Assembly (NCBI GenBank): GCA_022616075.1
Contig: JAKEFK010000024.1
Coordinates: 572 to 64,571, forward strand
Reading direction: 5' to 3'
DNA: 64,000 bases
Source of the DNA: a bacterium
GTDB lineage: Bacteria; Acidobacteriota; HRBIN11; JAKEFK01
Shown: one piece after another, positions 415 to 35,722 of the stretch
Numbering within the stretch: position 1 is the first letter of the stretch
How the letters are laid out: each line of letters begins with the position of its first letter
Translations under genes and position numbers: made by a program
Notes under the pieces: model-generated
Seen by the model: only the letters and a program-made list of their open reading frames with translations
What the model was told of the DNA's origin: nothing
Database searches by the model: none

Positions 415-624
415 CCGTTAGCGATGAATACTTATCATGGATAAGATGAACGAACTTGTGTTTACGGCGATTTATAAATAACGCCGCCTTTTCGGACATG
501 AAGGGCCTTGTAACTATGCGCCCGAAAGTGGGTCAATTTTCAACGCCCCTTGACAGAACACATTCAGGATACGCGGCAAAGTCCAGCCGAAAAGCTGACA
601 ACTCCAGTAGATTTTGAGCCTGCA

Positions 625-2175
625 TCATTGGGAAATGTTCTTTTCAAGCTGCATCCAGAAGGGAAGCCAGAAATGGAATAAAGGAGGTGGAGCTGCTGCG
701 GCAATCTCGCCTGTCAATTTGTTATCCATGAGCCACAATCGAAAACGCGTGCGGTGATTGTGATTTGCTGTATCGGGATTCCGGATCGTTGCATCGGAGC
801 GTCCGGATACTCGACCTTCGATCCAGGTTAGATCGGTTACCGGATGTTCCGCATCATCACCGATTTTTAACCTCGCTGCGCTCTGATCGATCTGCAGCAG
901 GACCGGAATTGTTTTTTCCCATGTCACGATTTTCCCACTCCACCTTCCCTGCAAACCTTCAGGCGCATGGAAGGGAAGTTCAGGAGGTCTGGGTTTTCGC
1001 GTCGGATCGAGCACGCGGCGCGCAGGATAATCTTCAATCAACACATCGAGCACCGAGTCGGCGAGTGAATACGTCAAATCCTGTCGACTGTTCGATAGAA
1101 CAGCAATCACGATTCTTTGCTTCGGTGCAATTCTCAGAATGGTGGAAACACCCGGGGATCCACCTTCATGTCCATACCACAGGTGTCCGAATTTCGATTC
1201 CTCTCTACCTCCCCAACCCAACCCGTAAAACCAATCCAAGCCCCAGAATCCGGAGGCAGAGCCGGAAGACTTTTTCTCCTGGATCATCCGGTCAATGTTT
1301 TCTTTACTCAGAATCTGGCGCTGATCTTTTACCTGCTCTTTCAGGTGAAACATCCCGAACCGCACGAGATCGTGAGCTGTGGAATAGATTGTCCCCGATC
1401 CGCGAGAATCAAAATCATAATCTGGGATGAGGGTCTCTCCAGGCCCGAATCTTTTTGCGACGTTTCGATCCGCAGGACCAACCGAAGTCTGATAAAGCCC
1501 GAGCGGCTGGAAGAGCTCCTGTTGCATGAATCTGCTAAAGGATTGCCCGGATACGTCTTCGATGACCCGTTCGAGAATTCCGTACCCGAGGTTGGAGTAA
1601 TCGTGTTGTTCGTCCGGTTGGCGCACGACAATTGCGTAGCGTTGGACTGTCTCATCCAGGGAAGGGCGTCTTGTTTCATCGTTCGCAAAATAGTAGCGAT
1701 TCTGTTCTGCGAGCCCTGCCCTGTGCTGCAAAATCAGTTGCAACGTGGCATCCTTTGCATCGGCCGCATGTCCTGTAATTTTTGCGTTCTTTAAATAGTT
1801 GTTGGCCGGACGATTCAAATCGACCAGACCATTCTGGACCAGTAGCATCAGACCTGTTGCTGTAAGGGGTTTTGATACGGACGCGATCGGATATGTTGTG
1901 GCGGGAGTTGCCTTCCTCCTGCTGGAGATGTCAGAGAATCCAAATGCCTCCTGCCAGAGGATTACTCCTTTCATCGCAACAGCGATCGAAACGGAAACCG
2001 GCGTGCCTGTTTTCACGGATTGCAGTATCTGGGTGCGTATCGGCTCCAATCGCGAATCCTGTAAGGGGAGCGTTGTCGCTTCCCTGGTCGATGAAATTGT
2101 GATCTGTGTGAGCAGGGCAACCAGCAGGCTAAAGGTAAGCAAGGCGAAGAGAGCGCGCGGTTCGCGGGTGCTCAT
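625..2175 (-). CDS. Class-C beta-lactamase-like serine hydrolase with signal peptide and C-terminal extension domain
   Basis: 516 aa ORF with a hydrophobic N-terminal signal, an SxxK motif (ASVSK) and a YSN motif (DYSNLGYG). Confidence 0.85.
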   Translation of the reverse strand: MSTREPRALFALLTFSLLVALLTQITISSTREATTLPLQDSRLEPIRTQILQSVKTGTPVSVSIAVAMKGVILWQEAFGFSDISSRRKATPATTYPIASVSKPLTATGLMLLVQNGLVDLNRPANNYLKNAKITGHAADAKDATLQLILQHRAGLAEQNRYYFANDETRRPSLDETVQRYAIVVRQPDEQHDYSNLGYGILERVIEDVSGQSFSRFMQQELFQPLGLYQTSVGPADRNVAKRFGPGETLIPDYDFDSRGSGTIYSTAHDLVRFGMFHLKEQVKDQRQILSKENIDRMIQEKKSSGSASGFWGLDWFYGLGWGGREESKFGHLWYGHEGGSPGVSTILRIAPKQRIVIAVLSNSRQDLTYSLADSVLDVLIEDYPARRVLDPTRKPRPPELPFHAPEGLQGRWSGKIVTWEKTIPVLLQIDQSAARLKIGDDAEHPVTDLTWIEGRVSGRSDATIRNPDTANHNHRTRFRLWLMDNKLTGEIAAAAPPPLFHFWLPFWMQLEKNISQ

Positions 2176-2459
2176 GGTGCAAGCTTAAAATCAACGGAAC
2201 TGGCTGTCCAGTGAGTTATTTTCAGCATTTGGATGAGAGAATCTAATTTAGAATTTTTTCGGTCACGACTTCTCCTATCAAACCGATTCGGTAAAGCAAA
2301 CGGTGACCCCCACTGATTTGCCAAACTCCGATCATATAAGACATAACCGCATGAGCTCATGACGTTAATGAAAAAGATTAATTGGTTTCTGTCCAGTAGG
2401 AATCATTAGAATAAGCAAATGAAATTACAGGTTATGAAAGTTCAGGAAGAGAATTTGAG

Positions 2460-3483
2460 ATGAAACTGGTTGAATTACGCGAACGTTACGCAATTGATAA
2501 CCTCATGGTTGTAGAGGGTCCGGTACCGGAAGTACGTGCGGGCGAAGTGTTGATACAAATCAACGCATGTTCCCTGAATTATCGAGATTTGCTGATTGTG
2601 AGGGGTTATGGACGTTGGAAAAAAACCTTGCCGTTCGTGCCACTGTCTGATGCGGCTGGAGAAGTTGTGGAGGTTGGACCTGGAGTTTCAAGAGTTGCAA
2701 TTGGTGACAGTGTTGCTGCGATATTCGTTCCGGCGTGGTTAGATGGAGATCTTTCGGAGGAAAATGATGGGCCTGCCATGGGGGAAATGCTCCCAATACA
2801 GGGTTCTTCCAGAGGAAGTGCTGGTTCGAGTCCCGGAGCACCTGAATGATACGGAAGCGGCAACGCTGCCGTGCGCGGCCGTAACGGCATGGAACGCCTT
2901 GTCCGGAGAAGGTTCGCCGAAGCCCGGGGAGACGGTAGTTGTACTGGGTTCCGGGGGAGTATCGTTGTTTTCGCTTCAATTTGCTCGCCTCAAAAAAGCG
3001 CGTGTTATTGCATGCTCCCGGAGCGAAGCCAAGATAACCCAACTTTTAAAACTGGGTGCAGATCACGCAATCAACTCTGGAGTTTCACCTGGATGGCCTG
3101 AAGTTGTGATGCAATTAACGGAGGGCCGCGGGGCCGATTACATTATAGATGTTGTTGGCAGGCTCGCGGATTCCGTTCATGCACTCCGGTTCGGAGGTCT
3201 CATTAGCGTCATCGGAATGCTCGATCGATTTTCGACTGAAATCGATCCGGCTGTAATAATGGCAAAAAAGGCGCGTCTCCGCGGGCTCCAGGTTGGCTCA
3301 AGGGAAATGTTCGAAGCCATGAATCGCGCCCTTTTCCGCCACCGAATCCGTCCTGTCATCGATCGCGTTTACAACCTGACAGCCGTGCAGGCCGCCTACC
3401 GCAGACTTGAAAGCGGTGATCAGTTCGGCAAAGTATGCATCCGGCTCTGGCCTGATACTAAAGAAAAAAGCGACTTTAACTAA
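2460..3483 (+). CDS. MDR-superfamily NAD(P)H:quinone oxidoreductase/alcohol dehydrogenase, frameshifted
   Basis: The N-terminal half (2460..2849) and C-terminal half (2743..3483, motifs VVVLGSGGVS and EAATLPCAAVTAWNAL) lie in different frames. The shift falls at a G5 run (2779..2783). Confidence 0.75.
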
Positions 3484-3496
3484 GGAAATAGGAATC

Positions 3497-4246
3497 ATGA
3501 GATTCGTCGGAAAAATAGCTCTCGTGACGGGGGCCGGCAAAGGAATAGGGAAGGCTACAGCTCTCAAGCTGGCATCGGAAGGATCTGATGTCGCTGTACA
3601 CTATCTTCGTTCATCGGAACATGCCGAATCAGTTTGTGAGAAAATTCGTGCGCTGGGAGCTCGAGCCTTGGCGGTTCAGGCAGATATTGCCGACAGAGAA
3701 ACCGTAAATAAGATGGTAGCTTGCGTCACTGCGGAGCTTGGCCCGATCCAATTGCTGGTAAACAATGCGGGGGATATAGGGGATATCGATTTCCATCAAT
3801 TGCAGCCTGAGCATTGGGATCGGATTGTTGCAATAAACCTCACAGGCCCCTTCAATCTTATCTGGGCAGTGAAGGAGGGGATGCTTGCTCGACAATTCGG
3901 CAGGATCGTAAATATTTCCTCTATTGCGGCCTTAGCCGTTCGACCGAATCTTCTTCCGTACTCAGCTGCAAAAGCCGGGGTGATCTCATTGACAAAATCC
4001 TGTTGCGCTCCGTTTGCTCAAAAGAATATCAGAATCAATTCCGTCGCACCGGGCGCAATTGATACGGATATGTTGCGTGAGCTTTCCCCACAAACAGTAG
4101 AGCAATTGAAGTCCGCGACTCCGTTGGGCCGTTTGGGCGAACCGGAGGAAATCGCAAATGTTGTCGCGTTTCTTCTCAGTGAGGAATCAAGTTACATGAC
4201 GGGCTCTACAATCATCGTCAGCGGTGGCAGAATGCTGATTCCGTAA
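3497..4246 (+). CDS. SDR-family oxidoreductase (FabG-like)
   Basis: Glycine-rich motif GKIALVTGAGKGIGKA, NNAG, and catalytic YSAAK. RBS-like GGAAATAGGA precedes the ATG at 3497. Confidence 0.85.
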   Translation: MRFVGKIALVTGAGKGIGKATALKLASEGSDVAVHYLRSSEHAESVCEKIRALGARALAVQADIADRETVNKMVACVTAELGPIQLLVNNAGDIGDIDFHQLQPEHWDRIVAINLTGPFNLIWAVKEGMLARQFGRIVNISSIAALAVRPNLLPYSAAKAGVISLTKSCCAPFAQKNIRINSVAPGAIDTDMLRELSPQTVEQLKSATPLGRLGEPEEIANVVAFLLSEESSYMTGSTIIVSGGRMLIP

Positions 4247-4342
4247 TCATGCCATGCTGATTATCGAGCCTTCATAGATATGGCGTCTTTCTGCTGAACC
4301 AAACCGGATTTTGGTGTCAGAGTGACGTATGGACTGCCGCGA

Positions 4343-4649
4343 ACTTGTTCCAGTGTTAGATCATCCTCTGCCAATTTCACTCCAAAAACTTTCGCCCAAA
4401 ATAAAACCCCGCCTCCTCCTCAGAGAGGACAGCGGGTTAGGAATTTCAGATTTTTAAGGGATTGCTAGAACCGGCGGCTGCGCCATCTAACGGATTTCAA
4501 AACCTGCTGCCCTGCCCCTATGATAGGGGCGAATACAGGAGCAATTTGTTTTGAAATCTTTTGTATTCATGAAGATAATTTGAACCTAAGTCAATTGTCC
4601 TGAATTGTCAAGCCGTTAGCGATCAATACTTATCATGGATAAGATGAAA
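4343..4649. repeat. About 307 bp repeat, copy 2: orphan duplicate of the reductase 5' leader, downstream of the SDR gene
   Basis: Same hairpins as copy 1. On the minus strand it encodes FWAKVFGVKLAEDDLTLEQV and then diverges and stops. Confidence 0.8.
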
Positions 4650-4705: not shown

Positions 4706-5313
4706 TCAGCGGCTCTGAGATGTTTTCTGAAAGTAATATCCACCTTCGTAGAAGCCAACTACATTTCCCATTGAATCAAAGACAAAACTAAGAATTTCGC
4801 CAGGAGAATGCGGACCGGACATTCTGAATCTGTCTTTCCCTTCAGGCGTAAGCTCGGAATCGGAGTTTGGATACTCTACCCAACTCAATATCAACTGATT
4901 GTCCTTTATAGCGAGGTCCATACTAAAAGAGAGAACCTCGGATCGATATCGGCCGATGAATTTTCCGAAATCTTTTGACGTTTGGAGGGAAACCGATTGT
5001 TGTTTAGAACGGTGGATCCGATCAAAAATCGGAATTAGCAATCCAGGACTTCTCACAAGTGTTTCGTGGCCACTCCTTTGTATCCATATTCGTTAATATT
5101 ACGATTCCCAGTTTTGATTCCGGGACGAAAGCAATCATCGAATCATACCCGGGAGCGTCGCCTGCGTGACCAACTAGAGTGCGGTCGCTTTTTCGAAAAA
5201 GGGCGAACCCAATTCCGTAACCGAAACTCCAATTGCTATTCATGAACTGAGGCGTCCGCATTTCTCTCAGACTATGAGCTGATAATACTTCAGAATCGTC
5301 TTTGAACTGGCAC
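4706..5313 (-). pseudogene. Second class-C beta-lactamase-like gene, C-terminal part, separated from its N-terminal part by an inversion
   Basis: Encodes QFKDDSEVLSAHSLREMRTPQF...GHAGDAPGYDSMIAFVPESKLGIVILTNMD plus the C-terminal extension. It aligns to residues about 270-516 of the 625..2175 protein. Confidence 0.7.
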
Positions 5314-6258
5314 ACATTTACGCCAAAAAAACTTTGGAAGCCGGCTTTACGTCGGTTCGTGATCTTGGAGCCAGCGAACTGATCGACGTTGCCTTGAAAA
5401 AAGCGATTAACAATGGGAGGATCCCCGGTCCCCGCATGTTCGTTGCCACTCTCACCTTGGGCGCCACAGGTAGTCACGGAGATTGGGGGACCGGCTTTCC
5501 CCATACCTTCGTATGGAAGGATTGAGTAACACTGCGGATGGGGTTGAAGAGATCAGGAAAGCTATTCGACTTCAGATTAAGTACGGAGCCGATCAAATTA
5601 AATTTGCAGCCACTGGTGGGGTATTTAGTGAAGCGGGATCGGCCGAGGGTATGCAGTACTCTCCTAAGGAGATGAGAGCCATCGTGGATGAGGCGCATCT
5701 CTGGGGCAAGAGAGTTGCGGCGCACGCACACGGAACGCAAGGAATAAAAACTGCTGTGGAGGCAGGAGTCGATTCCATTGAACATGGAAGTCTTATAGAT
5801 GAAGAAGGAATTGAGATGATGAAGAAACGTGGCACTTATCTCATTCCCACAATTTTTGCGGCGGATGCTGTTGAAATTTACGGTAAGGATTGGAATCTGC
5901 CTGAAAGTATCCTCGCAAGAGGGCGGTCTATCAACAAAGAAAACGTGAAAACTACAGAAAGGCAATCAAGGCGGGTGTCAAGGTTGGGTTCGGATCAGAC
6001 GCCACCGTATTTCCCCACGGAATGAACGCTGTCGAATTTTCTCATCTAGTCGAAGTGGGAATGACGCCAATGCAGATAATCCAGGCCGCTACAGTTGTTA
6101 ATTCAGAACTGCTCGGTAAGAGCGACGAATTAGGATCCATCGAACCAGGAAAAATATGCTGATTTCATCGCCGTTTATGGAGATCCATTGAAGAATATCG
6201 AGGCGCTCAATGATGTACGATTTGTTATGAAAGGCGGCGTTATTTATAAATCGCCGTA
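5314..6258 (+). pseudogene. Amidohydrolase-family (metal-dependent hydrolase) gene body, detached from its N-terminus and multiply frameshifted
   Basis: LEAGFTSVRDLG...AAHAHGTQGI...GVDSIEHGS...GSDATVFPHGM...YKSP*. Lesions include an 8-nt insertion near 5940 and an extra A in an A5 run near 6150. Confidence 0.7.
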
Positions 6259-6321
6259 GACAGAAGTTCATCTTTACGAATCGAATTCTTTAACTCATTC
6301 GGAAATAAATGAGCTAAGATA

Positions 6322-7213
6322 GTGGTATTTTTGATGATTCCTCGTGGCGCATCATTGATTAAACGGACAAGAAATTCCCTTTTCATCTGTTTCTTTCTAC
6401 TCCTTCACTTCGAAACCGGCCAGAGTCCATCTGCGGCAGCGATGAAGGATGATCCTGAAATAAAAGCTGCCCTGCAAATTGTTGACGAAATCATCACCAG
6501 ACGCCATTCTGTGGCGGAAATATAGGACCTCAGCCGCAATTATTTACGGCGAGAAGGTGATATGGGCAAAGGGATATGGTTATTCCAATATTGAAGAAAA
6601 ACAGCCGGCCACCCCTGATACGATTTATCGAATCGCATCTATCACTAAAGTGTTTACTGCGACAATGCTCATGCAATTGCGAGATGAAGGCAAGCTACAG
6701 CTTGATGAGTCTCTAGTGAGCCATATCCCCAATCTTAAGATTCGCAACCGATTCTCGAGTTCCGCGCTCCTTTCGTTCAGGCAGGTCGCATCACACTCTT
6801 CAGGTCTGCAGCGGGAACCACCCGATATTCAAAAATACTGGGACACTCTTATTTTTCTTCCATTGAACTCATGATGCCTTCCATTATTGAGAAGGCTGAA
6901 ATGGCAACGCCACCGTTAACCTGCTTGAGCTACTCGAATCTGGCTGTCGCCTTGATGGGTCACGCCCTGGAGAGAATCGCAGGTCTGGACTATGAGACAT
7001 ACGTGACCGAGCGAATTACTCAACCTCTAGACATGACAGATACTTTTTTTCATCCTTCCCAGAAAGTCCAAAACAGGGTAGCAATTCCCTACACAAAGAC
7101 TGCGGGAACGGTATCAAAACAGAAGCTAATCTATTCGAGTCTGGGAGGTCTACAGCCCGCGGGAGGACTCTTTTCAACGGTAACGGATCTGGGAAGATTC
7201 ATTTCACTCCACA
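6322..7213 (+). pseudogene. Second class-C beta-lactamase-like gene, N-terminal part (signal peptide, SITK, YSN) with at least two frameshifts
   Basis: Three consecutive ORFs in different frames (6322..6525, 6479..6874, 6871..7320) together align to the N-terminal about 270 aa of a class-C enzyme. The match ends abruptly after ISLHKN at 7213. Confidence 0.7.
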
Positions 7214-7557
7214 AGAATTGCGCGATCGATTGGAGACATCCTGAACAATTCGGCTTCGTAGTTCTCAGCCTGTTCTGTGATATGCGTGTGGGCATCTATC
7301 AAGCCGGGCAGCACAGTTAATTGGGATAGATCAATTCTTCGTGCACTAACCGGAACCTGAACATGATCCGCCGTACCAACTGCTTCAATCGGTTCCCCTT
7401 TTACTAAAATCAGCTGATTATCAATCACTTTTCCAGTTTTGACGTCAATCATCCTACCGGCCTGGAGAACGGAATAACTAACTTCTTCTGCTTGCAAGTT
7501 TGCGAAAAGGGTGGCGAAAAGTGAAAAAACCACGATGAAGAATTGGAGTAATTTCAC
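7214..7557 (-). pseudogene. Amidohydrolase N-terminus (signal peptide plus HxH metal site DAHTH), now separated from the gene body at 5314..6258
   Basis: MKLLQFFIVVFSLFATLFAN...LPGLIDAHTHITEQ. The ORF terminates inside repeat R2 at the inversion junction. Confidence 0.65.
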
Positions 7558-7650
7558 AGTCTGTCCTCCTGTCCTTTTCTAGACTATCCGGAAGCATTGC
7601 TGATGGTATTGGACAAAAAAGATTGATTGGACAAAAAGCACAATCGGTGT
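7498..7650. repeat. About 150 bp repeat R1, copy A (upstream region plus signal-peptide codons MKLLQFFIVVFSLFATLFAN)
   Basis: Near-identical to 9815..9965. Confidence 0.8.
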
Positions 7651-7669
7651 AAGGGAAGCAATGACCACT

Positions 7670-9874
7670 TCAACCGGGTCCGAAGCCCAGAGGCGAAACA
7701 TTCAAGGCCGGTTCAGGCCCCGGCCCAAGGTGGCGCTCGAACCAGTCTAGCACCCGCTGCAGGACGTCCACCTGATGGGCTCGCTCGCTGATGCCATGCG
7801 GCTCGCGTGGGTAGACGACCATCTCGGTCTCTGTACCGACGAGCCTCAGAGCATGATAAAACTCCCACCCTTGGCCTACAGGAGCCAAGTCGTCCGCTTC
7901 GCCGTGCAAGACGAGAGTAGGCGTACGGCAGTTTTTGACATGCGCCAGCGGGGAGCGGTTCCAATAGGCATCGGGTCGATCGATGTGAGTACCGAGGAAG
8001 TAGGGCGAGAAGAACGACGGTGTAAACGTGCCGCTCCCATTGGAGCTCGCCAAATTCGACAGTCCGGCGCTCATGACGGCTGCCTTGAAGCGGTTGGTTT
8101 GAGTAACCGCCCAGGCGGTCATGTAGCCTCCGTACGACCCGCCCCCGATCCCGAGCCGGTGCGGATCGGCGATCTTCTGATCGATCAAATGGTCCAGGCC
8201 GTCCATGATGTCCGTGAAGTCTCCGCCTCCCCAGTCGTCGCGGTTCGCCTCGGCGAATCTCCAGCCCTGGCCGCTTGATCCACGAGGATTCGGCAGCAGA
8301 ACCACGAAGCCGTGAGACGCCAGGAGTTGGCCCCATTCCCACGCTGAGCCATGCCAACCTGCCCACCATGCCCACTCCGGCCCGCCGTGCACTTGCACGA
8401 CTGTCGGCTGCGGGTTTCCCTTTCGGAAACCCGGCGGGGTGATCAGCACACCATGGATTATACGGCCGTCCTGGCTGCTCTTCCACGATATTTCCTCACT
8501 CTCACCGAGCCGCCAGGAGGCGGCCTGCGGATGGAGAGAGGTAAGACGGCGACCGGGCTCGCCGATACGCAGCACCCACACATCATCGGGCGACTGGCCC
8601 GTACCGCTGACGTACGCCAGCACACGGGAATCGGCGCTCGCGCTGAATCTGCGGCCAGGCCACAGGAAGGTCTGAGCCTCGCCTAGCACCTGTACCGCTT
8701 CCGTCGAGACCTTCACGCGCAATAGGCGCGTCCGCGCAGCCTCGAAGCTCTGGAATAGCAGATGCTCAGAATCCGAATCCCATTCTGCGCCCCAGTCTCC
8801 CGTCCAGAGCGAGCCCGGGTAGTCGTCCAGCAGATAGCGCGGCCGACCGCCGGCGGCGGGAACCAAAGCCACCCGGATGGAAATGTTGGCGGGAGATGGG
8901 GTCGAGAAAGCGATGGTGTGTCCATCCGGCGACCAGCGGACTATCTGTTCCGAATAGGCAATCGCTTCGCTCAGGGTGCGCGCCACTTGGCCCCCCTGCC
9001 TTCGGATCACAACCAGTCTGGAGGGCTGATAGTGGACGTCTTCCATGCGAGGCGTCTTTGCGGTCACGATTGCGATCTCCTCTCCACCGGGCGACCAGTC
9101 AAAATCGCTGATCTCGAGACGCTGTGGTGATACCGGTTCGGCATGACCGTCGACCAAACGCACGACGTACAGTCGCGAGTACCTGTAATTATGGTCAGCG
9201 TACCGTGCATCGTCGCCATCCTTTGATTTTTTCACCTCTTCTTCGGAGGGAGCTTCGCGCAGCGTAAAGGCGATCATCGAGCCGTCTGGTGACCAGCGAA
9301 ATCGCAGTACCTCTCCCCGGAGCGCGGTGACCGGCTCGGCCTCACCACCGTCCAGACGCAGCAGCCAGAGCTGGGCCCCGGCTCCGCTCAGTGCCCCCTG
9401 TGGACACGGGCGATCGGAGAGGAAGGCGAGCCGCCTGCCTTCTGGGGACCAGCGAGGCGTGGTGTCGTTGGCTAGATGCGACGTCAACCTGCGAGCCGGT
9501 GCGTTGCCGTCGGTTGGGACGATCCAGATATCGGCCTTGGGGAGCGGATCAGGGCGTGCCGAATCGACCGCCTCACGTACCACGAAGGCGATCCGCAAGC
9601 CGTCTGGTGAGACTTGGGCGTCGCTGACCTCGCGGATGGCGACCAGATCCTCGGGGGTTACAGAGCGCTTCGCCTCGCTGATGGTGTCCGAAGACGCTGA
9701 TGTAAAGCCTGCTTCCAAAGTTCTTTGGCGTATGTGTGTGCAAAAATTGCGCGATCGATTGGAGACATTCTGAACATTTCGGTTTTCGTAGTTCCCCGCC
9801 TGGTCTGTTTGTCCGTTTGCGAAAAGGGTGGCGAAAAGTGAAAAAACCACGATGAAGAATTGGAGTAATTTCAC
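7670..9874 (-). CDS. S9-family serine peptidase (prolyl oligopeptidase/acylaminoacyl-peptidase-like) with N-terminal beta-propeller; GC-rich chimeric gene
   Basis: GGSYGG nucleophile elbow, and C-terminal Asp and His motifs (HGEADDLAP, REPHGI). The body is about 65% GC against about 48% in the flanks. The first about 60 codons come from the amidohydrolase leader (R1-R2-R3). Confidence 0.85.
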   Translation of the reverse strand: MKLLQFFIVVFSLFATLFANGQTDQAGNYENRNVQNVSNRSRNFCTHIRQRTLEAGFTSASSDTISEAKRSVTPEDLVAIREVSDAQVSPDGLRIAFVVREAVDSARPDPLPKADIWIVPTDGNAPARRLTSHLANDTTPRWSPEGRRLAFLSDRPCPQGALSGAGAQLWLLRLDGGEAEPVTALRGEVLRFRWSPDGSMIAFTLREAPSEEEVKKSKDGDDARYADHNYRYSRLYVVRLVDGHAEPVSPQRLEISDFDWSPGGEEIAIVTAKTPRMEDVHYQPSRLVVIRRQGGQVARTLSEAIAYSEQIVRWSPDGHTIAFSTPSPANISIRVALVPAAGGRPRYLLDDYPGSLWTGDWGAEWDSDSEHLLFQSFEAARTRLLRVKVSTEAVQVLGEAQTFLWPGRRFSASADSRVLAYVSGTGQSPDDVWVLRIGEPGRRLTSLHPQAASWRLGESEEISWKSSQDGRIIHGVLITPPGFRKGNPQPTVVQVHGGPEWAWWAGWHGSAWEWGQLLASHGFVVLLPNPRGSSGQGWRFAEANRDDWGGGDFTDIMDGLDHLIDQKIADPHRLGIGGGSYGGYMTAWAVTQTNRFKAAVMSAGLSNLASSNGSGTFTPSFFSPYFLGTHIDRPDAYWNRSPLAHVKNCRTPTLVLHGEADDLAPVGQGWEFYHALRLVGTETEMVVYPREPHGISERAHQVDVLQRVLDWFERHLGPGPEPALNVSPLGFGPG

Positions 9875-9965
9875 TGTCTGTCCTCCTGTCCTCTTCTAGA
9901 CTATCTGAAGCGGGGTTGATGGTATTGGACAAAGAAGATTGCTTGGACAAAAAGCACAATCGGTG
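9815..9965. repeat. About 150 bp repeat R1, copy B, fused onto the S9 peptidase gene; followed by R2/R3 at 9700..9800
   Basis: Near-identical to 7498..7650. The adjacent 9700..9800 matches 7215..7265 (R2) and 5314..5345 (R3, opposite orientation). Confidence 0.8.
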
Positions 9966-9986
9966 TTCGACCGCAGGAGCTACCAC

Positions 9987-10796
9987 TTACGAACAAAGAG
10001 TGCGATATTGCGCCGGCGTCAGTCCTGTCATGCGCTTGAAGACTCTACAAAAATGGCTTTGATCATAGAAACCGACATCAGCGGCGATCTTAGCCAGAGA
10101 TGGGTTGATGCGCGAAGAGAGAAGTTCGCAGGCAGCTTGAATGCGACGCTTCCGTAAATAAGCGCCTATCGAGTGGCCGTAAACTTTCCGAAACGATCGC
10201 GAGAGCCGCGTAGAGTTTACACCAGATCGGCGCGACAGTTCCTCGAGTTTGAGCGGACTTGCATAATTTGAATCAATGATCTCTTTTGTCATAACAAGCC
10301 ATGGCTGAAGCGTCGATGTCTTCATGCAGAAGGTCTCTCGAGAAACTTGTCCAAGCATCTCAAGAATGATCCCCTCTATGATTAACGGATGGGTTTTCCC
10401 TCCGTATCGTAATTCCTGTACTAGATTCGCGGCAAGCCAGGACAGACGACCACCGCGAAAAATAATCGATTCTCCAGTTTTTTGTAGAAGCTCAGCGAGG
10501 CAATGTGCCCATTGTTCACCAACTTCCACATGCAAGACGCGAGCTCCCCTGGAAGAAATCCGGTGGGAGTGTTCTTCGCTGGAAGGATGAAATCCAACCG
10601 TCCATGGGTTCCATTTAATGTTTTTGCGCCCATAAGTATCGACGAATGCACCTTTCAACAGTATCCCAATGGAAACGCAGGAATGAGAGTGAAGGGGTAT
10701 CACCAAATCCGGAGGATAAAAGTATTCGATCAATCGAAATCCGGTAAGCTGTCTATCGTCCAAGGTTTCTCGTTTATTATCGCATCCTGAACTCAT
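9987..10796 (-). CDS. AraC-family transcriptional regulator (cupin sensor plus dual HTH)
   Basis: C-terminal AraC HTH signature (YLRKRRIQAACELL...IAADVGFYDQSHFCRVFKRMTGLTPAQYR). Confidence 0.8.
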   Translation of the reverse strand: MSSGCDNKRETLDDRQLTGFRLIEYFYPPDLVIPLHSHSCVSIGILLKGAFVDTYGRKNIKWNPWTVGFHPSSEEHSHRISSRGARVLHVEVGEQWAHCLAELLQKTGESIIFRGGRLSWLAANLVQELRYGGKTHPLIIEGIILEMLGQVSRETFCMKTSTLQPWLVMTKEIIDSNYASPLKLEELSRRSGVNSTRLSRSFRKVYGHSIGAYLRKRRIQAACELLSSRINPSLAKIAADVGFYDQSHFCRVFKRMTGLTPAQYRTLCS

Positions 10797-10950: not shown

Positions 10951-11293
10951 CTATGGTTTGTTTGTTTGCCAACCCGGGAAAACGGCTGCTCGATCCCACC
11001 AGGTACTTTCGGGAAAATCAGTCGAAAGCTGTTTCCAATGTTCCTTTAAGATTTCGCGATTCCTTCCAGCTATTCGGTATGCTGCGATTCCCTTCCAAAA
11101 TAACGCTTCAGGAGTAACCGTCAAATTCTTTGTTGAGCAGTTGCGTCACCCGTTCGTTCGGATACGTCACGGCATCCATTTTCCCGCAACCCAGTCAACC
11201 GGGAACGTAGAAATCGATAAAAAGCGCCTTTTGTTTTTCTTGCGCCTTTCTTTGCGCTTCTTCAATGTTGGAACACCATAAGATGTCCGGCAT
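10951..11293 (-). pseudogene. Decayed paralog of the thioredoxin-fold UxxC gene at 35129; retains the in-frame TGA
   Basis: MPDILWCSNIEEAQRKAQEKQKALFIDFYVPG-TGA-LGCGKMDAVTYPNERVTQLLNKEF, then an internal deletion and frameshift, then a C-terminal match (EALFWKGIAAYRIAGRNREILKEHWKQLSTDFPESTWWDRAAVFPGW). Confidence 0.55.
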
Positions 11294-11459
11294 GTTTGCT
11301 CCTTCTTTCTGAACCAGAATAGATTCTTCAAGATCATTGGTCGAATTAATTGTTTTCAGCATGTCGATGAGACATTGTCATGAGAAAAGGGAGAAGTCAC
11401 GCATGATGGCTTCTCATGCAAATCTTGAATAAAACTAATTGGACAGGGACTCCTCTCCG

Positions 11460-14479: not shown

Positions 14480-16726
14480 ATGAAGGTCCTGTTTTTTATC
14501 TTGCTTGCTCAGACAGCATTTGCGTTTACCAGGCCGGTCGTGGAGATTTCCCGAATCCATCAAGCGCCTCAAATAGAAGATTTTCTGGACATGGATTCCG
14601 ACAGCGAGAGAGACCTTCTGAAAATAGAAGGATTCCGGCAGCGGGAGCGGAATGACAATAAGCCCTCCACGCGTCTTACCAGGGTTTTTCTGGGTTATGA
14701 TGACCGCAATTTCTATGCAGTTTTTCAATGTTTCGAGAAGGATCGCGACAAAATTCGCGCGCGGATGATGAATCGCGGCAGTAACGCGATCTACAATGAC
14801 GACATCGTTACAGTTCAGCTGGACACGTTCAATGACCAGCGCCGCGCGTATCAGTTCGTGTCCAACCCATTCGGCGTCCAGCAGGATGCCGTTTGGTTTG
14901 AGGATTCCGCAACCTTTGATTACTCCTTCGATACTGTTTTCAAAACGAAAGCAAGGATCACTCAAGACGGATATGTTGTCTTGTTTGCGATTCCATTTCG
15001 CAGTTTACGGTTTTCGTCCGATGAGCGTCAAAACTGGGGAATTCTTTTAACTCGTTATATTCCCGGGATCGATGAGCAAACTTACTGGCCTCAGTATTCG
15101 AACAAAATCTCCGGACGACTGAACCAGACGGCGGTTCTGAATGGTCTGAGGAATATTTCACCCGGGCGTAATATTCAGCTTCTGCCGTACACTGCGTTTC
15201 GGTCTTTTCAGGCGCTTGATCTTCGGAACCTGTCCACTCCGCGGATTGTGGAGGACCCGGCGGAGAATGAGGTGGGAATAGATGGCAAATTCATCGCGAG
15301 GGACAGTCTTGTTGTCGATGTGACGGCGAATCCTGATTTCAGCCATGTAGAATCGGATGAACCGCAGGTCACGGTGAATCAAAGATTTGAGGTGCTCTTC
15401 CCTGAAAAACGTCCGTTCTTTCTGGAGAATCAAAGCTTTTTTGAAACTCCGATTAATTTACTGTTTACGCGGAGAATTGCTGATCCGCAATGGGGGACGC
15501 GCCTGACCGGAAAGATTGGGAATTACAGTCTGGGCGCTTTGCTTAGCGATGATGAATCGGAAGGAAAGAGTCTGCCTGAAGATCATCCGTTGTCGGGGGA
15601 ACGCGCATATTATGGCACCATCCGGGTAAGTCGCGATCTCGGACACCAATCTTCAATTGGGTTGATTTACGCCGACAGCCGATTTGCCAGCAGCTTCAAC
15701 CGCGCAGGCGGTGTTGATGCTCATATCAAATTCAGCGATCAGTGGGTTTCTACTTTTCAAGCTGTTACAACGTCCACCAGGAATCAAGATGGAACCAGAA
15801 GTGCCGGGCCCGGATACAGAGTGAACTTGCGGCGGAATGGGCGCCATTTTGTTTACAATTTCGACTACCATGATTTCAGTCCCGGATTTGTCTCGCGTAC
15901 TGGATTTGTGAATCGCACCGATATTCGACGATTCGATCAACAGGCAGGCTACAGTTTCCGCCCGGAAAGCAACTTTCTGTTCGCGTGGACGCCGCATTAC
16001 GATATTTCCTATGTCTATGATCACAGCGGAACACTGATAGATTGGTTTCACAATCCATGGGTATCGCTTGATATGGCTGGACAAACGTTCCTGGGGTTTG
16101 GTTATACCTTTTTGGCTACCAGGGTAAAACCGGACGACTTCCCGGTCCTCACTGAGAATCTCAGGATATCCCGTCACGAGTGGGGTGTGACCTTCAACAC
16201 GGAAGCATTGAGACGGCTCAGTGTCGCATCGTCACTATTTGTTGGCAGATCTGTAAATTTTGTGCCCCGCGAAGATAAGCCTCCCGCCGGTGCCGATTTT
16301 CTGAACGCAGCCTTAACCCTTTCCTTCCGCCCGACGAATTCCTTCACCATTGATACTGCGTACATCCTGAACAGGCTTACAGATCCTCAGACATCTTTCG
16401 ATATCTTCAACAATCACATTATCCGGACAAAATGGAATTATCAAATCAATCGCGAACTTTCGATTCGTGTCATTGTGCAGTATGACACTCTGCTGGCCAA
16501 TACGAATTTTACTAGGTTGCAAACAGTGAAAAACCTGAATGCGGATTTATTGGTCACCTACATGGTTCATCCAGGCACCGCGCTTTTTGTCGGATTCAAT
16601 AGCAATCTTCAAAATTTGGATCCGAGTCTTGCCATGACTGGCTCCGGCTTGCTGCGTACTCGCAACGATTTCCTGAACGATGGCAAACAGTTCTTCGTAA
16701 AATACTCACATTTGTTCCGATTCTGA
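14480..16726 (+). CDS. DUF5916-type protein: N-terminal CBM9-like domain plus putative outer-membrane beta-barrel; paralog 1
   Basis: 748 aa with a signal peptide and a C-terminus ending ...FFVKYSHLFRF. Paralogous to 31618..33903. Confidence 0.5.
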   Translation: MKVLFFILLAQTAFAFTRPVVEISRIHQAPQIEDFLDMDSDSERDLLKIEGFRQRERNDNKPSTRLTRVFLGYDDRNFYAVFQCFEKDRDKIRARMMNRGSNAIYNDDIVTVQLDTFNDQRRAYQFVSNPFGVQQDAVWFEDSATFDYSFDTVFKTKARITQDGYVVLFAIPFRSLRFSSDERQNWGILLTRYIPGIDEQTYWPQYSNKISGRLNQTAVLNGLRNISPGRNIQLLPYTAFRSFQALDLRNLSTPRIVEDPAENEVGIDGKFIARDSLVVDVTANPDFSHVESDEPQVTVNQRFEVLFPEKRPFFLENQSFFETPINLLFTRRIADPQWGTRLTGKIGNYSLGALLSDDESEGKSLPEDHPLSGERAYYGTIRVSRDLGHQSSIGLIYADSRFASSFNRAGGVDAHIKFSDQWVSTFQAVTTSTRNQDGTRSAGPGYRVNLRRNGRHFVYNFDYHDFSPGFVSRTGFVNRTDIRRFDQQAGYSFRPESNFLFAWTPHYDISYVYDHSGTLIDWFHNPWVSLDMAGQTFLGFGYTFLATRVKPDDFPVLTENLRISRHEWGVTFNTEALRRLSVASSLFVGRSVNFVPREDKPPAGADFLNAALTLSFRPTNSFTIDTAYILNRLTDPQTSFDIFNNHIIRTKWNYQINRELSIRVIVQYDTLLANTNFTRLQTVKNLNADLLVTYMVHPGTALFVGFNSNLQNLDPSLAMTGSGLLRTRNDFLNDGKQFFVKYSHLFRF

Positions 16727-22415: not shown

Positions 22416-23144
22416 ATTCCTGAATAGTTTGAATGGAGGGCAGGTTCTCTGTCTGAGTCTACAAGGATGCAGATTTTCCCAAAATGAGTTGCTCCTGCCA
22501 GATGCTGAAATGCCTGAGCCGCTTCATGGCAAATAAAGACACCCCTCCGGTTCCCAACACCACGACTGTGTCTTCCGGCCTGAGACGCCCTGCGCAAACC
22601 ACGGCATTCCATGCCGTAACTCCCGCGCACGGAAGCGTTGCAGCTTCTTCATCGGACAGATGCGGCGGGACCGGTACGACACTATCTTCGTCTACTGCGA
22701 TGTATTGTGCGAGAACCCATCGGCTACTGCGCCTCCGAGCGGAGAGACAAGTTTTTCCGGAGAGACTTCGCCCTCCAGCCACCTGGGATAAAAGATGGGC
22801 GCAACGCGATCTCCCTTCTTGACTCTGGTTACTCCGGTACCTGTCGTTTCGACAACGCCGGCTGCATCGGAGACAGGAACGCGGCCGGAAGGAGGTCTCC
22901 AACGGTTAACACCGTTTACTACGAGTAAGTCTCGATAATTGAGTGAAACCGCCCGGACGTTCAAGACAATCTGGCCGGGTTCGGCCACAGGCTCCGGACG
23001 TTCGACAACCTTTAAAGAATCAATACCAAATTTTTCACCAACTTTAATGACGCGCATGTTCCTGTCCTTTCCTTTATCACTCGTATCTAATTGCCACGGT
23101 TGGATCAACTCGCGATGCACGGCGAGCCGGAACAAAACATGCAA
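22397..23144 (-). pseudogene. Second MDR quinone-oxidoreductase paralog, frameshifted and C-terminally truncated
   Basis: N-terminal domain intact (SLNYRDLLVVNG; EEAATLPCAGVTAWNAV; VVVLGTGGVSLFAM), then frame breaks. About 80 aa of the C-terminus are missing where the ChrA gene ends. Confidence 0.6.
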
Positions 23145-33925: not shown

Positions 33926-34891
33926 TCAAGGGATCATCAGCACGATCTTGCCGTAGTGTCCCGGCTCCAGGATAGCTTCATGAGCGAACGCGGCTTCGTG
34001 GAGCGGGTATCGGCGCCCGATTACAGGCCGGACAACCCCGCTTTGCAGCCCAGCGCCCAGCGCTGCGTGGATCACAGAGACGTCTTCATCAGAGGCGTTA
34101 GACAGAAGCATGCCTAGAATCGATGCATCACGCGACATTGTATCGCGTGGATTGATTTCGATCGTTCCACGATTGCCGATCACAACGACGCGTCCATTTC
34201 TAGACAACATCGCCAGGTCCCGATTGAGATTTTGGTTCGCCAACATTTCCAGAACAATTGACACGCCGGCGCCACCTGTGGATTGCAATACTTCTTCCAC
34301 AAGGTTGGCGGAATTGTGATCGAACACCTGATGCGCTCCATTTTCACTGACGATCACACGTCCCTCATGGGTCCCGGCTGTCCCTATCACACGCATGCCC
34401 CAGGCATGAGCTAACTGAACCGCGGCCAGACCAACTCCTCCGCTGGCCCCATGGATCAGAACCGATTCTCCCGGGCGCGCATTTGCCTTCTGAAAAAGCG
34501 CACGAAACGCTGTCGCATACGGGACTCCAAGGGCTGCTCCCTGCTCGAACGTCACGTTGGGAGGAAGCGGATGCGCTTGCGCTTCTGTGCACAGAGCCGT
34601 TTGCGCATACGTCCCTGTGAGACTGCCCGAAAGATAAACACGTTCACCGATCTTAAATCGCGTATTCCCGCCTCCAACAACCGCCACTTTTCCCGCCCCA
34701 TCACGCCCTGGCGTGTATGGAAGCTGAGGAGATTTGGCATAAGTGCCCGCGCGAATGTATGTATCCACCGGATTCACACCTGCAGCATGGATCTCAACCA
34801 GCAGCTGGTCTCCCCCGGGTTGAAGATTCGGAACCTCTTCCAGTAGCAGCTTTTCAGGACCGCCAAACTCACGTACAACAATCGCTTTCAT
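33926..34891 (-). CDS. qor: NADPH:quinone oxidoreductase (zeta-crystallin-like MDR)
   Basis: MKAIVVREFGGPEKL...GVNPVDTYIRAG...HGASGGVGLAAVQLA. GC is higher than in the neighbouring genes. Confidence 0.8.
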   Translation of the reverse strand: MKAIVVREFGGPEKLLLEEVPNLQPGGDQLLVEIHAAGVNPVDTYIRAGTYAKSPQLPYTPGRDGAGKVAVVGGGNTRFKIGERVYLSGSLTGTYAQTALCTEAQAHPLPPNVTFEQGAALGVPYATAFRALFQKANARPGESVLIHGASGGVGLAAVQLAHAWGMRVIGTAGTHEGRVIVSENGAHQVFDHNSANLVEEVLQSTGGAGVSIVLEMLANQNLNRDLAMLSRNGRVVVIGNRGTIEINPRDTMSRDASILGMLLSNASDEDVSVIHAALGAGLQSGVVRPVIGRRYPLHEAAFAHEAILEPGHYGKIVLMIP

Positions 34892-35014: not shown

Positions 35015-35035
35015 AATCCTTTCATCGAAAGGATT
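35015..35035. promoter_or_regulatory. Perfect-arm palindrome AATCCTTT-N5-AAAGGATT about 95 bp upstream of the UxxC thioredoxin-fold gene
   Basis: 8-bp inverted arms. The half-site resembles the AATCTT/AAGATT arms upstream of 35786 and 36828. Confidence 0.35.
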
Positions 35036-35128
35036 CTCATGATAGTCCTTCATCGAAATACTGAAAACAATTAATTTGACAAATGAATGATCCAGCCCGT
35101 ATTCTATTTGCTGAAACGGAGTGCATAT

Positions 35129-35722
35129 ATGCCGGGAATCCTGTGGTCTTCTAACGTTGATGACGCGCTCATGAAAGCCCAAAAAGAAAAAAAAGCGCTT
35201 TTTATCGATTTCTACGTTCCCGGTTGACTGGGTTGCGGGAAAATGGATGCCGTGACGTATCCGAACGAACCGGTGGCGCAACTGCTCAACAAAGAATTTG
35301 CCTGTGTCAAATGCAACGTGCAGGAGAAAGTGCCCGAGCTGCTATTGAATTTCGGAAAAATCCAATGGACTCCCACGTTTGTCATCGCGGATCACGCGAA
35401 AAATCAGATCCGAAGGATTATCGGGTATCGGCCGCCTGTCGAATTCCAGGCCGAACTTCACGTTTCGCTCGGCCTGATTGATTTGCTTCACAATCGTAAC
35501 AGGGAGGCTCTCCTGCAATTTGAGGGCATTGCGAATCGATTCCCGAAGTCATTGGTTGCGGCGGAATCTGTGTTCTGGAAGGGAATAGCTGCATATCGAA
35601 CTGCAGGCAGGAATCGAGAAGTTTTAAAAGAATACTGGAATCAGCTTTTAACCGACTATCCGGAAAGTACGTGGTGGGATCGAGCGGCTGTTTTTCCTGG
35701 CTGGGAACCAAACCGCCCATAA
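35129..35722 (+). CDS. Thioredoxin-fold (Thioredoxin_7/DsbD-gamma-like) protein with in-frame TGA in a UxxC redox motif; putative selenoprotein
   Basis: ATG 35129 ...ALFIDFYVPG-TGA(35225..35227)-LGCGKMDAVTYPNEPV... continues in frame to 35722. The TGA sits exactly where the first Cys of CxxC is expected. A hairpin GGATGC-CGUGAC-GUAUCC lies 20 nt downstream (SECIS candidate). Confidence 0.6.

Follow-up and report, generated by a model that had tools for sequence, protein, structure and literature searches.

The open reading frame at positions 7670-9874 (minus strand, 734 codons) of the analysed window, a DNA stretch of 64,000 nt, is a genuine chimeric gene in which an S9 peptidase body stands behind a diverged copy of the 5′ end of an amidohydrolase gene. 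The peptidase coding region came from a compositionally distant, high-GC donor into a genome of about 48% GC, minus its own signal peptide; chimeric structure, foreign composition and intact enzyme features are all seen at the locus. The horizontally acquired peptidase probably captured a resident upstream region and signal peptide and was retained by selection. The original prediction, a horizontally acquired ORF lying in frame behind a duplicated resident secretion leader, agrees with composition, homology and repeats.

The Peptidase Body and Its Relatives

The peptidase body occupies positions 7673-9697 on the minus strand (codons 60-734, 675 codons), contains a β-propeller and an α/β-hydrolase domain and has no native signal peptide. 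Its GC-content is 63.1%, with 66, 52 and 71% in the first, second and third codon positions. The third-position value (71.4%) compares with 50.6 ± 3.8%, and a maximum of 58.7%, in the 31 other long ORFs of the window. The tetranucleotide correlation with the rest of the window is 0.14 for positions 7673-9698, against 0.6-0.9 for all other 2-kb stretches. The GC-content rises within about 40 nt at 7650-7680 and drops at 9680-9700. The composition is thus non-uniform and the sharp contrast with the host claimed earlier is real, with a value of 63% in place of the roughly 65% given for the body.

Pfam analysis of the fusion product identified PF00326 at residues 516-717 (178.9 bits with a cut-off of 22.6, E-value 1.2e-52), as well as the β-propeller profiles PD40 (1.4e-21) and DPPIV_N. 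Residues Ser580 (in GGSYGG), Asp661 and His693 are invariant columns in an alignment of 10 sequences. The profile, the Ser-Asp-His order with GxSxGG and the N-terminal propeller, which in this family gates the active site, place the predicted protein in the S9 (prolyl oligopeptidase) family of clan SC. The AF2 model of the fusion protein (pTM 0.74) features a propeller and a hydrolase domain, with residues 80-480 all-beta, and a linker modelled as disordered over residues 20-66 (pLDDT 26-34). A Foldseek search with this model found S9 carboxypeptidase 8WT1 at a TM-score of 0.83; for 8WT1 and 5YZN, TMt values were 0.79-0.84 over about 680 columns. NCBI annotation gives the same 734-aa product.

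The nearest solved relatives are annotated as carboxypeptidases or acylaminoacyl peptidases. With S9 enzymes of this type (8WT1 from Geobacillus, 5YZM/5YZN from Deinococcus radiodurans and 4HXE from Pyrococcus), the fusion protein shares the propeller and hydrolase, the Ser-Asp-His triad, the GxSYGG motif and PF00326. Identity to the solved S9 structures is only 24-29%, and the fusion protein differs from them in its foreign leader, in a Gly directly before the catalytic Ser, where Trp is nearly invariant in relatives, and in 18 additional C-terminal residues, encoded by a read-through extension past the usual end.

The best homologues of the peptidase body reach 58% identity at most, at 89% query coverage. 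The nearest relatives are stand-alone genes, each with its own signal peptide, and the closest is located on a contig of 67% GC; the named relatives are labelled Acidobacteriota/Terriglobia. All aligned homologues feature a hydrophobic N-terminal segment of about 20-40 residues followed by E-(E/Q)-K-R-x-x-x-P-E-D-L. In the fusion protein, the S9 homology begins at EAKRSVTPEDL, 7-8 codons after the last of the leader repeats (R3), which corresponds to the mature N-terminus of the signal-peptide-bearing homologues; a native N-terminus right after R3 had been proposed, and the alignment bears this out. Screening of the window for a second peptidase copy found this one copy only.

The Leader and Its Repeats

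The 5′ end of the adjacent amidohydrolase gene recurs, in diverged form, as the leader, which consists of 92 nt of upstream sequence, the AGGAGG ribosome-binding site and codons 1-59. It had been described as some 60 codons assembled from repeats R1, R2 and R3, and the 59 codons are indeed built of them. R1 (7487-7650 vs. 9804-9966) is 164 nt long with 91.5% identity, and 100 shuffles produced 0 such matches. R2 (7212-7278 vs. 9741-9808) is 88% identical with a 1-nt indel, and R3 (5310-5353 vs. 9699-9741) is 86% identical. Of the claim that the repeats lie directly on either side of the peptidase, the part concerning R1 and R2 holds, as both are direct and flank the foreign segment; R3, however, is inverted, with its copies 4.3 kb apart, because of an inversion of positions 5310-7211.

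The upstream and ribosome-binding region of the leader (R1B, 9875-9966, minus strand) is 89% identical to 7558-7650 and carries AGGAGG at 9882-9887, 7 nt upstream of the GTG at 9874. This GTG is the sole start with a canonical ribosome-binding site; a leaderless peptidase translated from an internal alternative start was ruled out, since no such start with a ribosome-binding site exists. The GTG opens a 20-codon signal-peptide-like segment, MKLLQFFIVVFSLFATLFAN (9815-9874, minus strand), 100% identical over its 60 nt to 7498-7557, with flanks about 10% diverged. The remainder of the leader (codons 21-59, 9699-9814, minus strand) consists of 6 nt of filler, R2B (9741-9808) and R3B (9699-9741), both copied from the amidohydrolase at around codons 93-125. 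Compared with the amidohydrolase copy (copy A), the leader lacks 213 nt, deleted in frame at a CAGA microhomology, and then shows a +1 and a −1 indel; because of this indel pair, 20 leader codons are outside the amidohydrolase frame. The two copies were compared by custom pairwise alignments, since MAFFT did not align across the 213-nt deletion.

Sec-type (SPase I) signal peptides combine an n-region of positive charge with a hydrophobic h-region of 10-15 residues and carry small residues at −3/−1 relative to the cleavage site. The putative signal peptide, M-K-LLQFFIVVFSLFATLF-ANG, was assessed by hydropathy and inspection; it has a lysine at position 2 and, by inspection, A-N-G or L-F-A as candidate cleavage sites. 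The Kyte-Doolittle mean over 9 residues lies between 1.4 and 2.9 where segments begin at residues 1-13, and from about residue 19 it drops below −1. In an alignment, the putative signal peptide lines up with the hydrophobic N-termini of amidohydrolase homologues. Upstream, R1B contains two TTTGTCCAA(T/G) boxes spaced 18 nt apart. A sigma-70 scan of both R1 copies found no consensus promoter, so the putative promoter is assigned by its position. A terminator-like hairpin followed by a T-run (9955-9975, minus strand) is located just past an AraC-type gene and overlaps the start of R1B. At the other end of the fusion ORF, the TGA stop (7670-7672, minus strand) lies within TGAAGTGGT. Upstream of the other repeat copy, the AraC-type gene has TAAGTGGT at its own stop, and the two sequences resemble each other only weakly, over 7-8 nt.

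Integrity of the Junctions

The source is a metagenome-assembled genome and the junctions are known from one sample only. In Logan, a single-run k=31 assembly, contigs L013, L014 and L017 (run SRR16971108) tile positions 11181→4594 at 100% identity. The reads are probably the same as those of the metagenome-assembled genome, so the comparison is independent of the assembler and not of the library. L014 is unbranched, 2,317 nt long and matches positions 9844→7528 of the window at 100%, spanning both junctions of the GC-rich segment. It was retrieved with a 724-aa partial product beginning at the predicted start of a k=31 contig; an exact look-up of the 734-aa product gave none. A protein search with the 160-aa junction region yielded weak matches only and missed the known exact protein as well, and hence was uninformative. 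The Logan contigs end exactly 30 nt inside each 60-nt identical stretch because a k=31 graph must break at a two-copy repeat. The contig of the metagenome-assembled genome passes through both 60-nt repeats, which were therefore resolved by longer k-mers or read pairs.

As L014 crosses both ends of the GC-rich segment, an assembly chimera, for which the original prediction had proposed a check, is unlikely. We regard it as extremely improbable that the junctions reflect chimeric assembly, a chimeric library or mixed strains, or, in a variant of this explanation, that the segment is a separate 2,347-nt circle outside the chromosome. Such an artefact would suit a metagenome-assembled source and a junction contig from one run, and the k=31 graph, taken alone, fits a tandem arrangement or a circle plus a single copy equally. 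However, a second assembler joins both junctions at 100%, and for a false join, unrelated genomes would have to share ≥30-mers at each of the two ends; the reading frame is continuous across the join, which falls at the boundary between signal peptide and mature protein; and the original contig runs through both repeats. A mixture of strains is at odds with leader copies that differ by a 213-nt deletion and indels, beyond SNPs. The circular intermediate suggested earlier may have existed; taken by itself, the k=31 graph would permit a 2,347-nt circle.

Neighbouring Genes

An intact AraC-family regulator gene (9987-10796, minus strand; Pfam HTH_18 and HTH_AraC) is located directly upstream of the fusion gene, and its exact protein is encoded on Logan contig L013. 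On the other side of the peptidase is copy A of the amidohydrolase 5′ end (7212-7650, minus strand). It has the upstream and ribosome-binding region (7558-7650), followed by the signal peptide (7498-7557), and is cut off at an inversion breakpoint after codons 21-115. In the inverted segment (5310-7211, 1,902 nt), two genes are now read from the plus strand: the amidohydrolase, with its remaining part (5310-6260, 3 frameshifts), and a beta-lactamase-family gene, with its N-terminal two-thirds (6322-7211, 2 frameshifts). The C-terminal third of the latter pseudogene, with at least one frameshift, remains at 4706-5309 on the minus strand. The breakpoints, 5309/5310 and 7211/7212, were located by tblastn with both genes, and the inversion is reproduced in Logan contig L017. 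The leader retains the ancestral contiguity of R2 and R3 seen in homologues; therefore, the duplication is older than the inversion.

When stitched together, the amidohydrolase is colinear with 429-aa homologues over its whole length. The neighbouring “donor” is nevertheless a pseudogene, split by the inversion and frameshifted. The claim that the leader derives from the adjacent amidohydrolase gene is thus correct as to the duplicated 5′ end and needs amending as to the state of that gene and the 20 leader codons off its frame. At least four genes are broken within 2.2-11.5 kb, namely the amidohydrolase and the beta-lactamase-family gene, a frameshifted quinone-oxidoreductase-like gene and, at 10.9-11.4 kb, a decayed paralogue. 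An Rfam scan over the entire window gave no match.

Further duplicated pieces are present. Repeat X (4343-4648) is a 93.5% copy of 144-450. Besides intergenic sequence, it includes the opening ~16 codons of a sulfite/nitrite-reductase-like gene and breaks off at 4343. The copy at 144-450 (X′) leads into a sulfite/nitrite-reductase-like gene on the minus strand that runs off the window start, and is adjoined by a 40-nt remnant of the amidohydrolase 3′ end (452-491, encoding KGGVIYKSP*). The intact beta-lactamase′ gene at 625-2175 was considered as a recent duplicate of the broken beta-lactamase gene and ruled out by an identity of only 22-30%.

Origin and Retention of the Fusion Gene

We infer an order and a mechanism of events, and likewise expression, export and selection. 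The target would have been a duplication of about 0.5 kb, from just past the stop of the AraC-type gene to amidohydrolase codon 125, at whose junction the foreign DNA may have been joined by illegitimate recombination at the level of microhomology; Campbell-type integration would yield the same product. Homology-facilitated illegitimate recombination was reportedly described by de Vries & Wackernagel in 2002. Later, the leader would have lost 213 nt in frame, with the +1/−1 pair keeping the frame open, and the redundant downstream amidohydrolase and beta-lactamase-family genes would have been broken by the inversion and then decayed. The amidohydrolase 5′ copy would provide the upstream region, AGGAGG, the GTG, the 20-residue signal peptide and about 40 codons acting only as a linker. 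The fusion would then be transcribed and translated from borrowed signals and its product exported by a borrowed Sec-type signal peptide; outside the cytoplasm it would work as an S9 exopeptidase or a peptidase of the acylaminoacyl type, in agreement with its relatives, each of which has a signal peptide of its own.

Selection is suggested by the distribution of damage. The two pseudogenes carry at least 6 frameshifts in 2,791 nt (about 2.15 per kb), whereas the 2,025-nt peptidase body has 0 with about 4.35 expected (P ~0.013); the frame-restoring indel pair and the identical 60-nt segment point the same way. Decay would also fit several features: the pseudogene-rich stretch, the 20 out-of-frame leader codons, the Gly for Trp and the 18-codon read-through. 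The fused ORF might accordingly be read as a non-functional relic: rearrangements would have left its frame open by accident, and the gene, with no expression or export of its product, would be turning into a pseudogene. We consider this unlikely. These same features, together with a sigma-70 scan that found no consensus promoter, speak for a relic, but the 2.2-kb ORF has neither frameshift nor stop beside genes so damaged, compensating indels preserve its open frame, the catalytic triad is intact with a confidently predicted fold, and the ribosome-binding site and the signal-peptide coding sequence are perfectly conserved.

A simple insertion between direct repeats in a single event had been proposed. 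Duplicated host sequence does lie on both sides, but the inversion, the 213-nt deletion, the indel pair and the fragments at 144-491 mean that a larger block or a multi-step history fits as well as one event; these extra fragments in particular suggest that a one-step origin may be wrong. Insertion at the duplication junction, Campbell-type integration and arrival inside a larger block may each have formed the gene.

The block alternative, which is somewhat unlikely but the more serious of those considered, gives the same product by other means. In this reading, the original amidohydrolase locus would survive as two stumps, namely the leader (9966→9699) and, together with X′, the 3′ remnant (491→144), which still adjoin the true AraC-type and sulfite-reductase-like genes; a 9.2-kb block would have replaced the middle, and the peptidase at its edge would have become fused to the leader stump. 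The block would contain the peptidase, a truncated second amidohydrolase locus, SDR and quinone-oxidoreductase genes and beta-lactamase′ (625-2175). Both ends of the copy A locus (7672→4343) are cut off, with X ending after 16 reductase-like codons; copy B and X′ sit in native context, and all duplicated pieces are similarly diverged (86-95%). However, the donor must already have had the peptidase beside a homeologous amidohydrolase locus, the composition is host-like except for the peptidase, and the beta-lactamase pseudogene between the 3′ end and X occurs in copy A only and needs an extra event; the 40-nt match is also a thin basis.

Two like layouts are found within 10 kb: leader, peptidase, leader, and X, a 3.85-kb block, and the 3′ remnant with X′. 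Their direct repeats are about 92-94% identical and come from the two ends of one amidohydrolase locus. With the identical 60-nt core, these layouts might reflect recurrent capture, e.g., small circles (such as the 2,347-nt unit that the k=31 graph implies) integrating and excising at short identical cores and shuttling genes through the resident leader, but this is very unlikely.

Mobile elements were also considered. IS elements and transposons are recognised by terminal inverted repeats, a transposase and a target-site duplication of 2-15 bp. Insertion of such an element was ruled out, as there are no terminal inverted repeats, no transposase in the ORFs scanned and a flanking duplication of hundreds of bp. 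Integron cassettes carry an attC hairpin at the 3′ end, with an integrase and attI nearby. A cassette was ruled out in turn: the ends of 7651-9698 have no inverted repeat, there is no 3′ terminator-like hairpin, the annotated neighbours include no integrase and the ORF has no start of its own. Searches for an empty site gave no comparison site among genome contigs with the reconstructed amidohydrolase (best match 40% identity) or among metagenome contigs with the AraC-type protein (46%). Among proteins, the best match was 61%; the synteny around these matches was no more than loose (DUF5916), and the S9 gene found there was a different one, of the DPPIV type. The collections searched contained no close relative and, accordingly, no uninterrupted site for comparison.

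Comparison with Known Systems

A gene that arrives by transfer often remains silent in its new host, and an exported enzyme additionally depends on a signal peptide recognisable to that host. Capture of promoters through duplication has been demonstrated by laboratory evolution. To our knowledge, natural cases of promoter capture with legible scars have seldom been described, especially in-frame capture of a signal peptide. The locus is a one-off in a single metagenome genome and no new kind of system. Most of the steps can still be traced in it: duplication of the leader, joining of the foreign body at the mature N-terminus, leader trimming with frame-restoring indels, and decay of neighbours including the amidohydrolase. 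Should the gene prove to be expressed and its product exported, the locus would serve as a clear worked example of a gene made functional after transfer between phyla, and as a natural precedent for the swapping of signal peptides.

Silent or transferred genes can be activated when tandem duplication or deletion lets them capture a promoter, as in the his fusions of Anderson & Roth 1978, the Cit+ rnk-citT module and the work of Li & Bock 2019 (summarised in PMC11111574). As in those systems, a duplicated resident expression signal lies directly upstream of a gene without usable signals, and the junctions have no long homology; direct repeats R1 and R2 flank the foreign segment, with the join at 9699/9698 and a putative promoter. 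In classical promoter capture, however, the activated gene lies inside the duplicated unit and is at first present in two copies, whereas here foreign DNA is found between the repeats. The fusion described here is also translational, including the signal peptide, and is a natural metagenome case, not an experiment.

Insertion-duplication (Campbell-type) integration and transformation-induced merodiploidy (PMC3784515) likewise place foreign DNA between direct repeats of a chromosomal segment, and the identical 60-nt core in repeats about 10% diverged would suit a crossover site. Here, in contrast, no vector, IS or repeat element is available for pairing, and the repeats are about 0.3-0.5 kb long and diverged.

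HGT-chimeric genes, in which acquired fragments are fused to native sequence, have been described systematically in arthropods, with at least one example in which an N-terminal signal peptide lies at the native end, of metazoan ancestry, ahead of the HGT-derived interval (PMC13389597). The fusion gene resembles them in being one ORF with two intervals of differing ancestry. It differs in its bacterial host, with no introns or exon shuffling, and in its native part, which is the duplicated 5′ stump of a neighbouring gene, with scars that are still readable.

A GC-Rich Peptidase Body Behind a Resident Leader

The mean GC-content of the window is ~48%, with a sharp-edged rise to 60–67% between ~7650 and 9700, in agreement with the original prediction of a peptidase body richer in GC than its surroundings. 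This stretch is filled by a single minus-strand ORF (7670–9874, 734 codons, GTG start), in which codons 1–59 form a leader and codons 60–734 the peptidase body. Pfam assigned it to the S9 peptidases (PF00326 at 1.2e-52, plus PD40 propeller repeats), among which the enzyme is unremarkable. An identical protein is deposited in NCBI as MCI0601774.1, “S9 family peptidase [bacterium]”, which shows that the window belongs to a metagenome-assembled genome (MAG). The proposed check of codon usage gave a GC3 of 71.4% for the body, above all 31 other ORFs of the window (50.6 ± 3.8%, maximum 58.7%). Tetranucleotide usage in the body correlates with that of the remaining window at 0.14, compared to 0.6–0.9 elsewhere.

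The best homologues of the peptidase, of which those named are Terriglobia/Acidobacteriota MAGs, reach 58% identity at most, with a query coverage of 89% that includes all but the leader. The closest, P0002, is a stand-alone gene with a GC3 of 87.5% on a contig of 67% GC, and its DNA is 67% similar to the window from 9637 to 7728. The N-terminus of every aligned homologue consists of a hydrophobic segment followed by E-(E/Q)-K-R-x-x-x-P-E-D-L. The match in the fusion protein begins at EAKRSVTPEDL, eight codons past leader repeat R3, close to where the native N-terminus had been placed. Judged by composition and alignment, the peptidase body is foreign to the host genome and has lost its own signal peptide. 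At the C-terminus, the ORF runs 18 codons beyond the usual end to a TGA inside the short motif TGAAGTGGT, which weakly resembles the stop region of the AraC-type gene preceding the leader.

The leader (copy B) duplicates the 5′ end of an amidohydrolase gene (copy A, near 7212–7650). It is built of repeats R1, R2 and R3, all of which recur nearby, as predicted. R1 (164 nt, 91.5% identity; copy A 7487–7650, copy B 9804–9966) and R2 (88%; 7212–7278 and 9741–9808, with a 1-nt insertion in copy B) are indeed direct repeats. R3 (86%; 5310–5353 and 9699–9741, with a 1-nt deletion in copy B), also thought to be direct, is inverted and lies 4.3 kb away. Within R1, the 60 nt encoding MKLLQFFIVVFSLFATLFAN are identical between the copies, and the upstream part (92–93 nt, 89% identical) includes AGGAGG 7 nt before the GTG. 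The 213 nt (71 codons) between the putative signal peptide and R2 in copy A are absent from copy B, and the endpoints of this deletion share CAGA(A). According to the homologue alignment, R2 of copy A is in the true frame; the +1 and −1 indels of copy B put 20 codons (NRNVQNVSNRSRNFCTHIRQ) out of frame, which is regained at TLEAGFTS. The foreign GC3, the 58% homologues that exclude the leader and the copied amidohydrolase 5′ end bear out the predicted placement of a horizontally acquired ORF in frame behind a resident leader.

Each R1 copy also carries, on the minus strand (7608–7636 and 9924–9952), two TTTTGTCCAAT-like boxes 18 nt apart, which make up four of the six near-matches window-wide, where chance alone would give 2.0. 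The adjacent AraC-type regulator could bind at these boxes.

Assembly Check

The assembly was checked independently by exact-product look-ups in Logan contigs, each assembled from a single run. Three contigs from run SRR16971108 match the window at 100% identity: L013 (11181→9845, 1,337 nt), L014 (9844→7528, 2,317 nt) and L017 (7527→4594, 2,934 nt). L014 was located by looking up the 724-aa partial product that begins at the predicted start of its k=31 unitig, 30 nt inside the identical 60-nt stretch. A 60-nt repeat present twice has to interrupt a k=31 graph, and the contigs end at precisely the positions this requires. Both edges of the GC-rich segment fall inside L014, and L017 runs through both breakpoints of the inversion described below plus all frameshifts; the structure therefore exists in the reads themselves, and neither the MAG assembler nor binning created it. 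The junctions questioned as a possible chimera are thus reproduced by L014, probably from the same library as the MAG, as are the other Logan contigs. The k=31 graph alone fits equally well with a tandem order and with one copy plus a circle of 2,347 nt; the tandem order is asserted only by the MAG contig, which passes through both 60-nt repeats. Run SRR16971104 contains the organism as well.

Inversion and Decay of the Neighbouring Genes

The amidohydrolase that supplied the leader is itself broken. Its ORF, starting in copy A, stops at 7204, and a homologue, P0121, matches the window as three separate segments: residues 1–110 at 7551→7216 (minus strand), 112–173 at 5310–5498 and 173–425 at 5495–6253 (both plus strand). 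A beta-lactamase-family gene is broken at the same two points, with residues up to ~277 ending at 7212 (plus strand) and those from ~281 starting at 5309 (minus strand). Since both genes are split at identical points, a 1,902-nt inversion (5310–7211) cut them both; inverted repeats were not found at its breakpoints, 5309/5310 and 7211/7212. Once restitched with three frameshift corrections, the amidohydrolase is 60% identical to 429-aa homologues and colinear with them over its full length; the alignment continues through the breakpoint, where it includes SPIDRAILAHIYAKKTLEAGFTS. At least three corrections are required for the beta-lactamase-family gene. In copy B, R2 and R3 are contiguous as in intact amidohydrolase homologues, so the leader was copied before the inversion.

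In this rearranged and decaying locus, a horizontally acquired peptidase has genuinely captured a resident leader in frame. The case comes from a single sample and a single lineage, from whose sequence we infer mechanism and expression.

Further along, the N- and C-terminal halves of a zinc-type alcohol dehydrogenase/quinone-oxidoreductase gene (2500–3483, plus strand) lie in different frames, which indicates an apparent frameshift near 2900; the gene is likely another pseudogene in the neighbourhood of the fusion.

Preservation of the Fusion Gene

Several features count in favour of a live gene. Catalytic Ser580 (in GGSYGG), Asp661 and His693 occupy invariant alignment columns. AlphaFold predicts a propeller plus hydrolase (pTM 0.74), and Foldseek matches the model to S9 carboxypeptidase 8WT1 (TM 0.83) and a Deinococcus S9 peptidase. 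In the same model, residues 2–19 form a helix and residues 20–66 a disordered linker (pLDDT 26–34), and the C-terminal tail is disordered. The two neighbouring pseudogenes carry at least six frameshifts in 2,791 nt; the 2,025-nt body, for which this rate predicts 4.35, has none (P ~0.013). The leader indels compensate each other, no change has touched the ribosome-binding site or the codons of the putative signal peptide, and the GTG at 9874 is the sole start codon with a ribosome-binding site. Counted against a live gene are the failure to detect a sigma-70-like promoter for it and the replacement by Gly of the near-invariant Trp before the nucleophile. The fusion gene is probably kept by selection.

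Proposed Origin and History of the Locus

In the minimal history, foreign DNA would first have come to lie between two copies of a target of ~0.5 kb, which starts just past the AraC-type stop codon and ends at amidohydrolase codon 125; the joining would have involved no long homology. The same product would result from Campbell-type integration if a circle brought in such a target segment. The in-frame loss of 213 nt from the leader would have followed, then the +1/−1 indel pair, and last the inversion and the decay of copy A and its neighbour. The repeat divergence of ~10% and the frameshift load of the pseudogenes fit one, not very recent, time scale.

Further pieces of this locus also occur twice: 144–450 matches 4343–4648 (307 nt, 93.5%; intergenic DNA and the initial ~16 codons of a sulfite/nitrite-reductase-like gene), and 452–491 corresponds to the final 40 nt of the amidohydrolase (6230–6269, 95%). 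The duplicates 144–491 and 4343–4648 flank a 3.85-kb block (492–4342), a layout that echoes leader–peptidase–leader. Copy B adjoins the real AraC-type gene, and the amidohydrolase remnant together with 144–450 the real reductase-like gene; neither end of the copy A locus (7672→4343) is complete. An alternative history follows from this arrangement, a nested block, in which the middle of the original amidohydrolase may have been replaced by a 9.2-kb block carrying the peptidase at its edge. Alternatively, two separate insertions, each flanked by a duplicated target, may have occurred. No related genome for comparing these histories turned up in the collections searched. A DUF5916 gene close to the amidohydrolase on the nearest related contigs (L008–L012) was the only trace of synteny found; the window encodes two DUF5916 paralogues of ~750 aa each (14480–16726 and 31618–33903, plus strand).

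Other Features of the Window

Two minus-strand genes, 23077–25518 and 33926–34891, encoding one MacB/FtsX-type permease and one zinc-type dehydrogenase, have a mildly raised GC-content (55–56%) and a lower tetranucleotide correlation (0.6–0.7), and could be older acquisitions. Segments 10952–11386 and 35034–35721 are inverted repeats (76–86%), at which Logan contigs begin and end; the stretch between the AraC-type and ChrB_C genes, free of long ORFs, represents a degenerate duplicate of the sequence surrounding ORF 35243–35722, for which no Pfam match was found. A 62-nt direct repeat (37784–37845 and 40354–40415, 82% identity) has its copies 2.6 kb apart.

A type 1 BREX defence locus occupies 53500–63943 on the minus strand, with the C-terminal part of BrxC (62696–63943), a 286-aa ORF, PglX (58102–61848), PglZ (55538–58099) and BrxL (53500–55548). 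The adjoining minus-strand genes for RmrT-like (52480–53103), RmrA-like (51370–52473) and HATPase_c_3/MzaB-like (701 aa, 49087–51192) proteins suggest, together with BREX, a small defence island.

Comparison with Known Systems

An integron cassette or transposon insertion was ruled out for the fusion locus, as terminal inverted repeats and an attC-like hairpin are absent and the scanned ORFs gave neither a transposase nor an integrase. Documented cases of promoter capture by duplication include Salmonella his fusions, the Cit+ rnk-citT module and the experimental activation of transferred genes (PMC11111574). The present arrangement would work in the same way; however, the fusion here is translational and includes a putative signal peptide, and the captured gene lies outside the duplicated unit. 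The leader–peptidase fusion also has a parallel in arthropods, for which HGT-chimeric genes have been catalogued; in one or more of these, an N-terminal signal peptide occupies the native end (PMC13389597).
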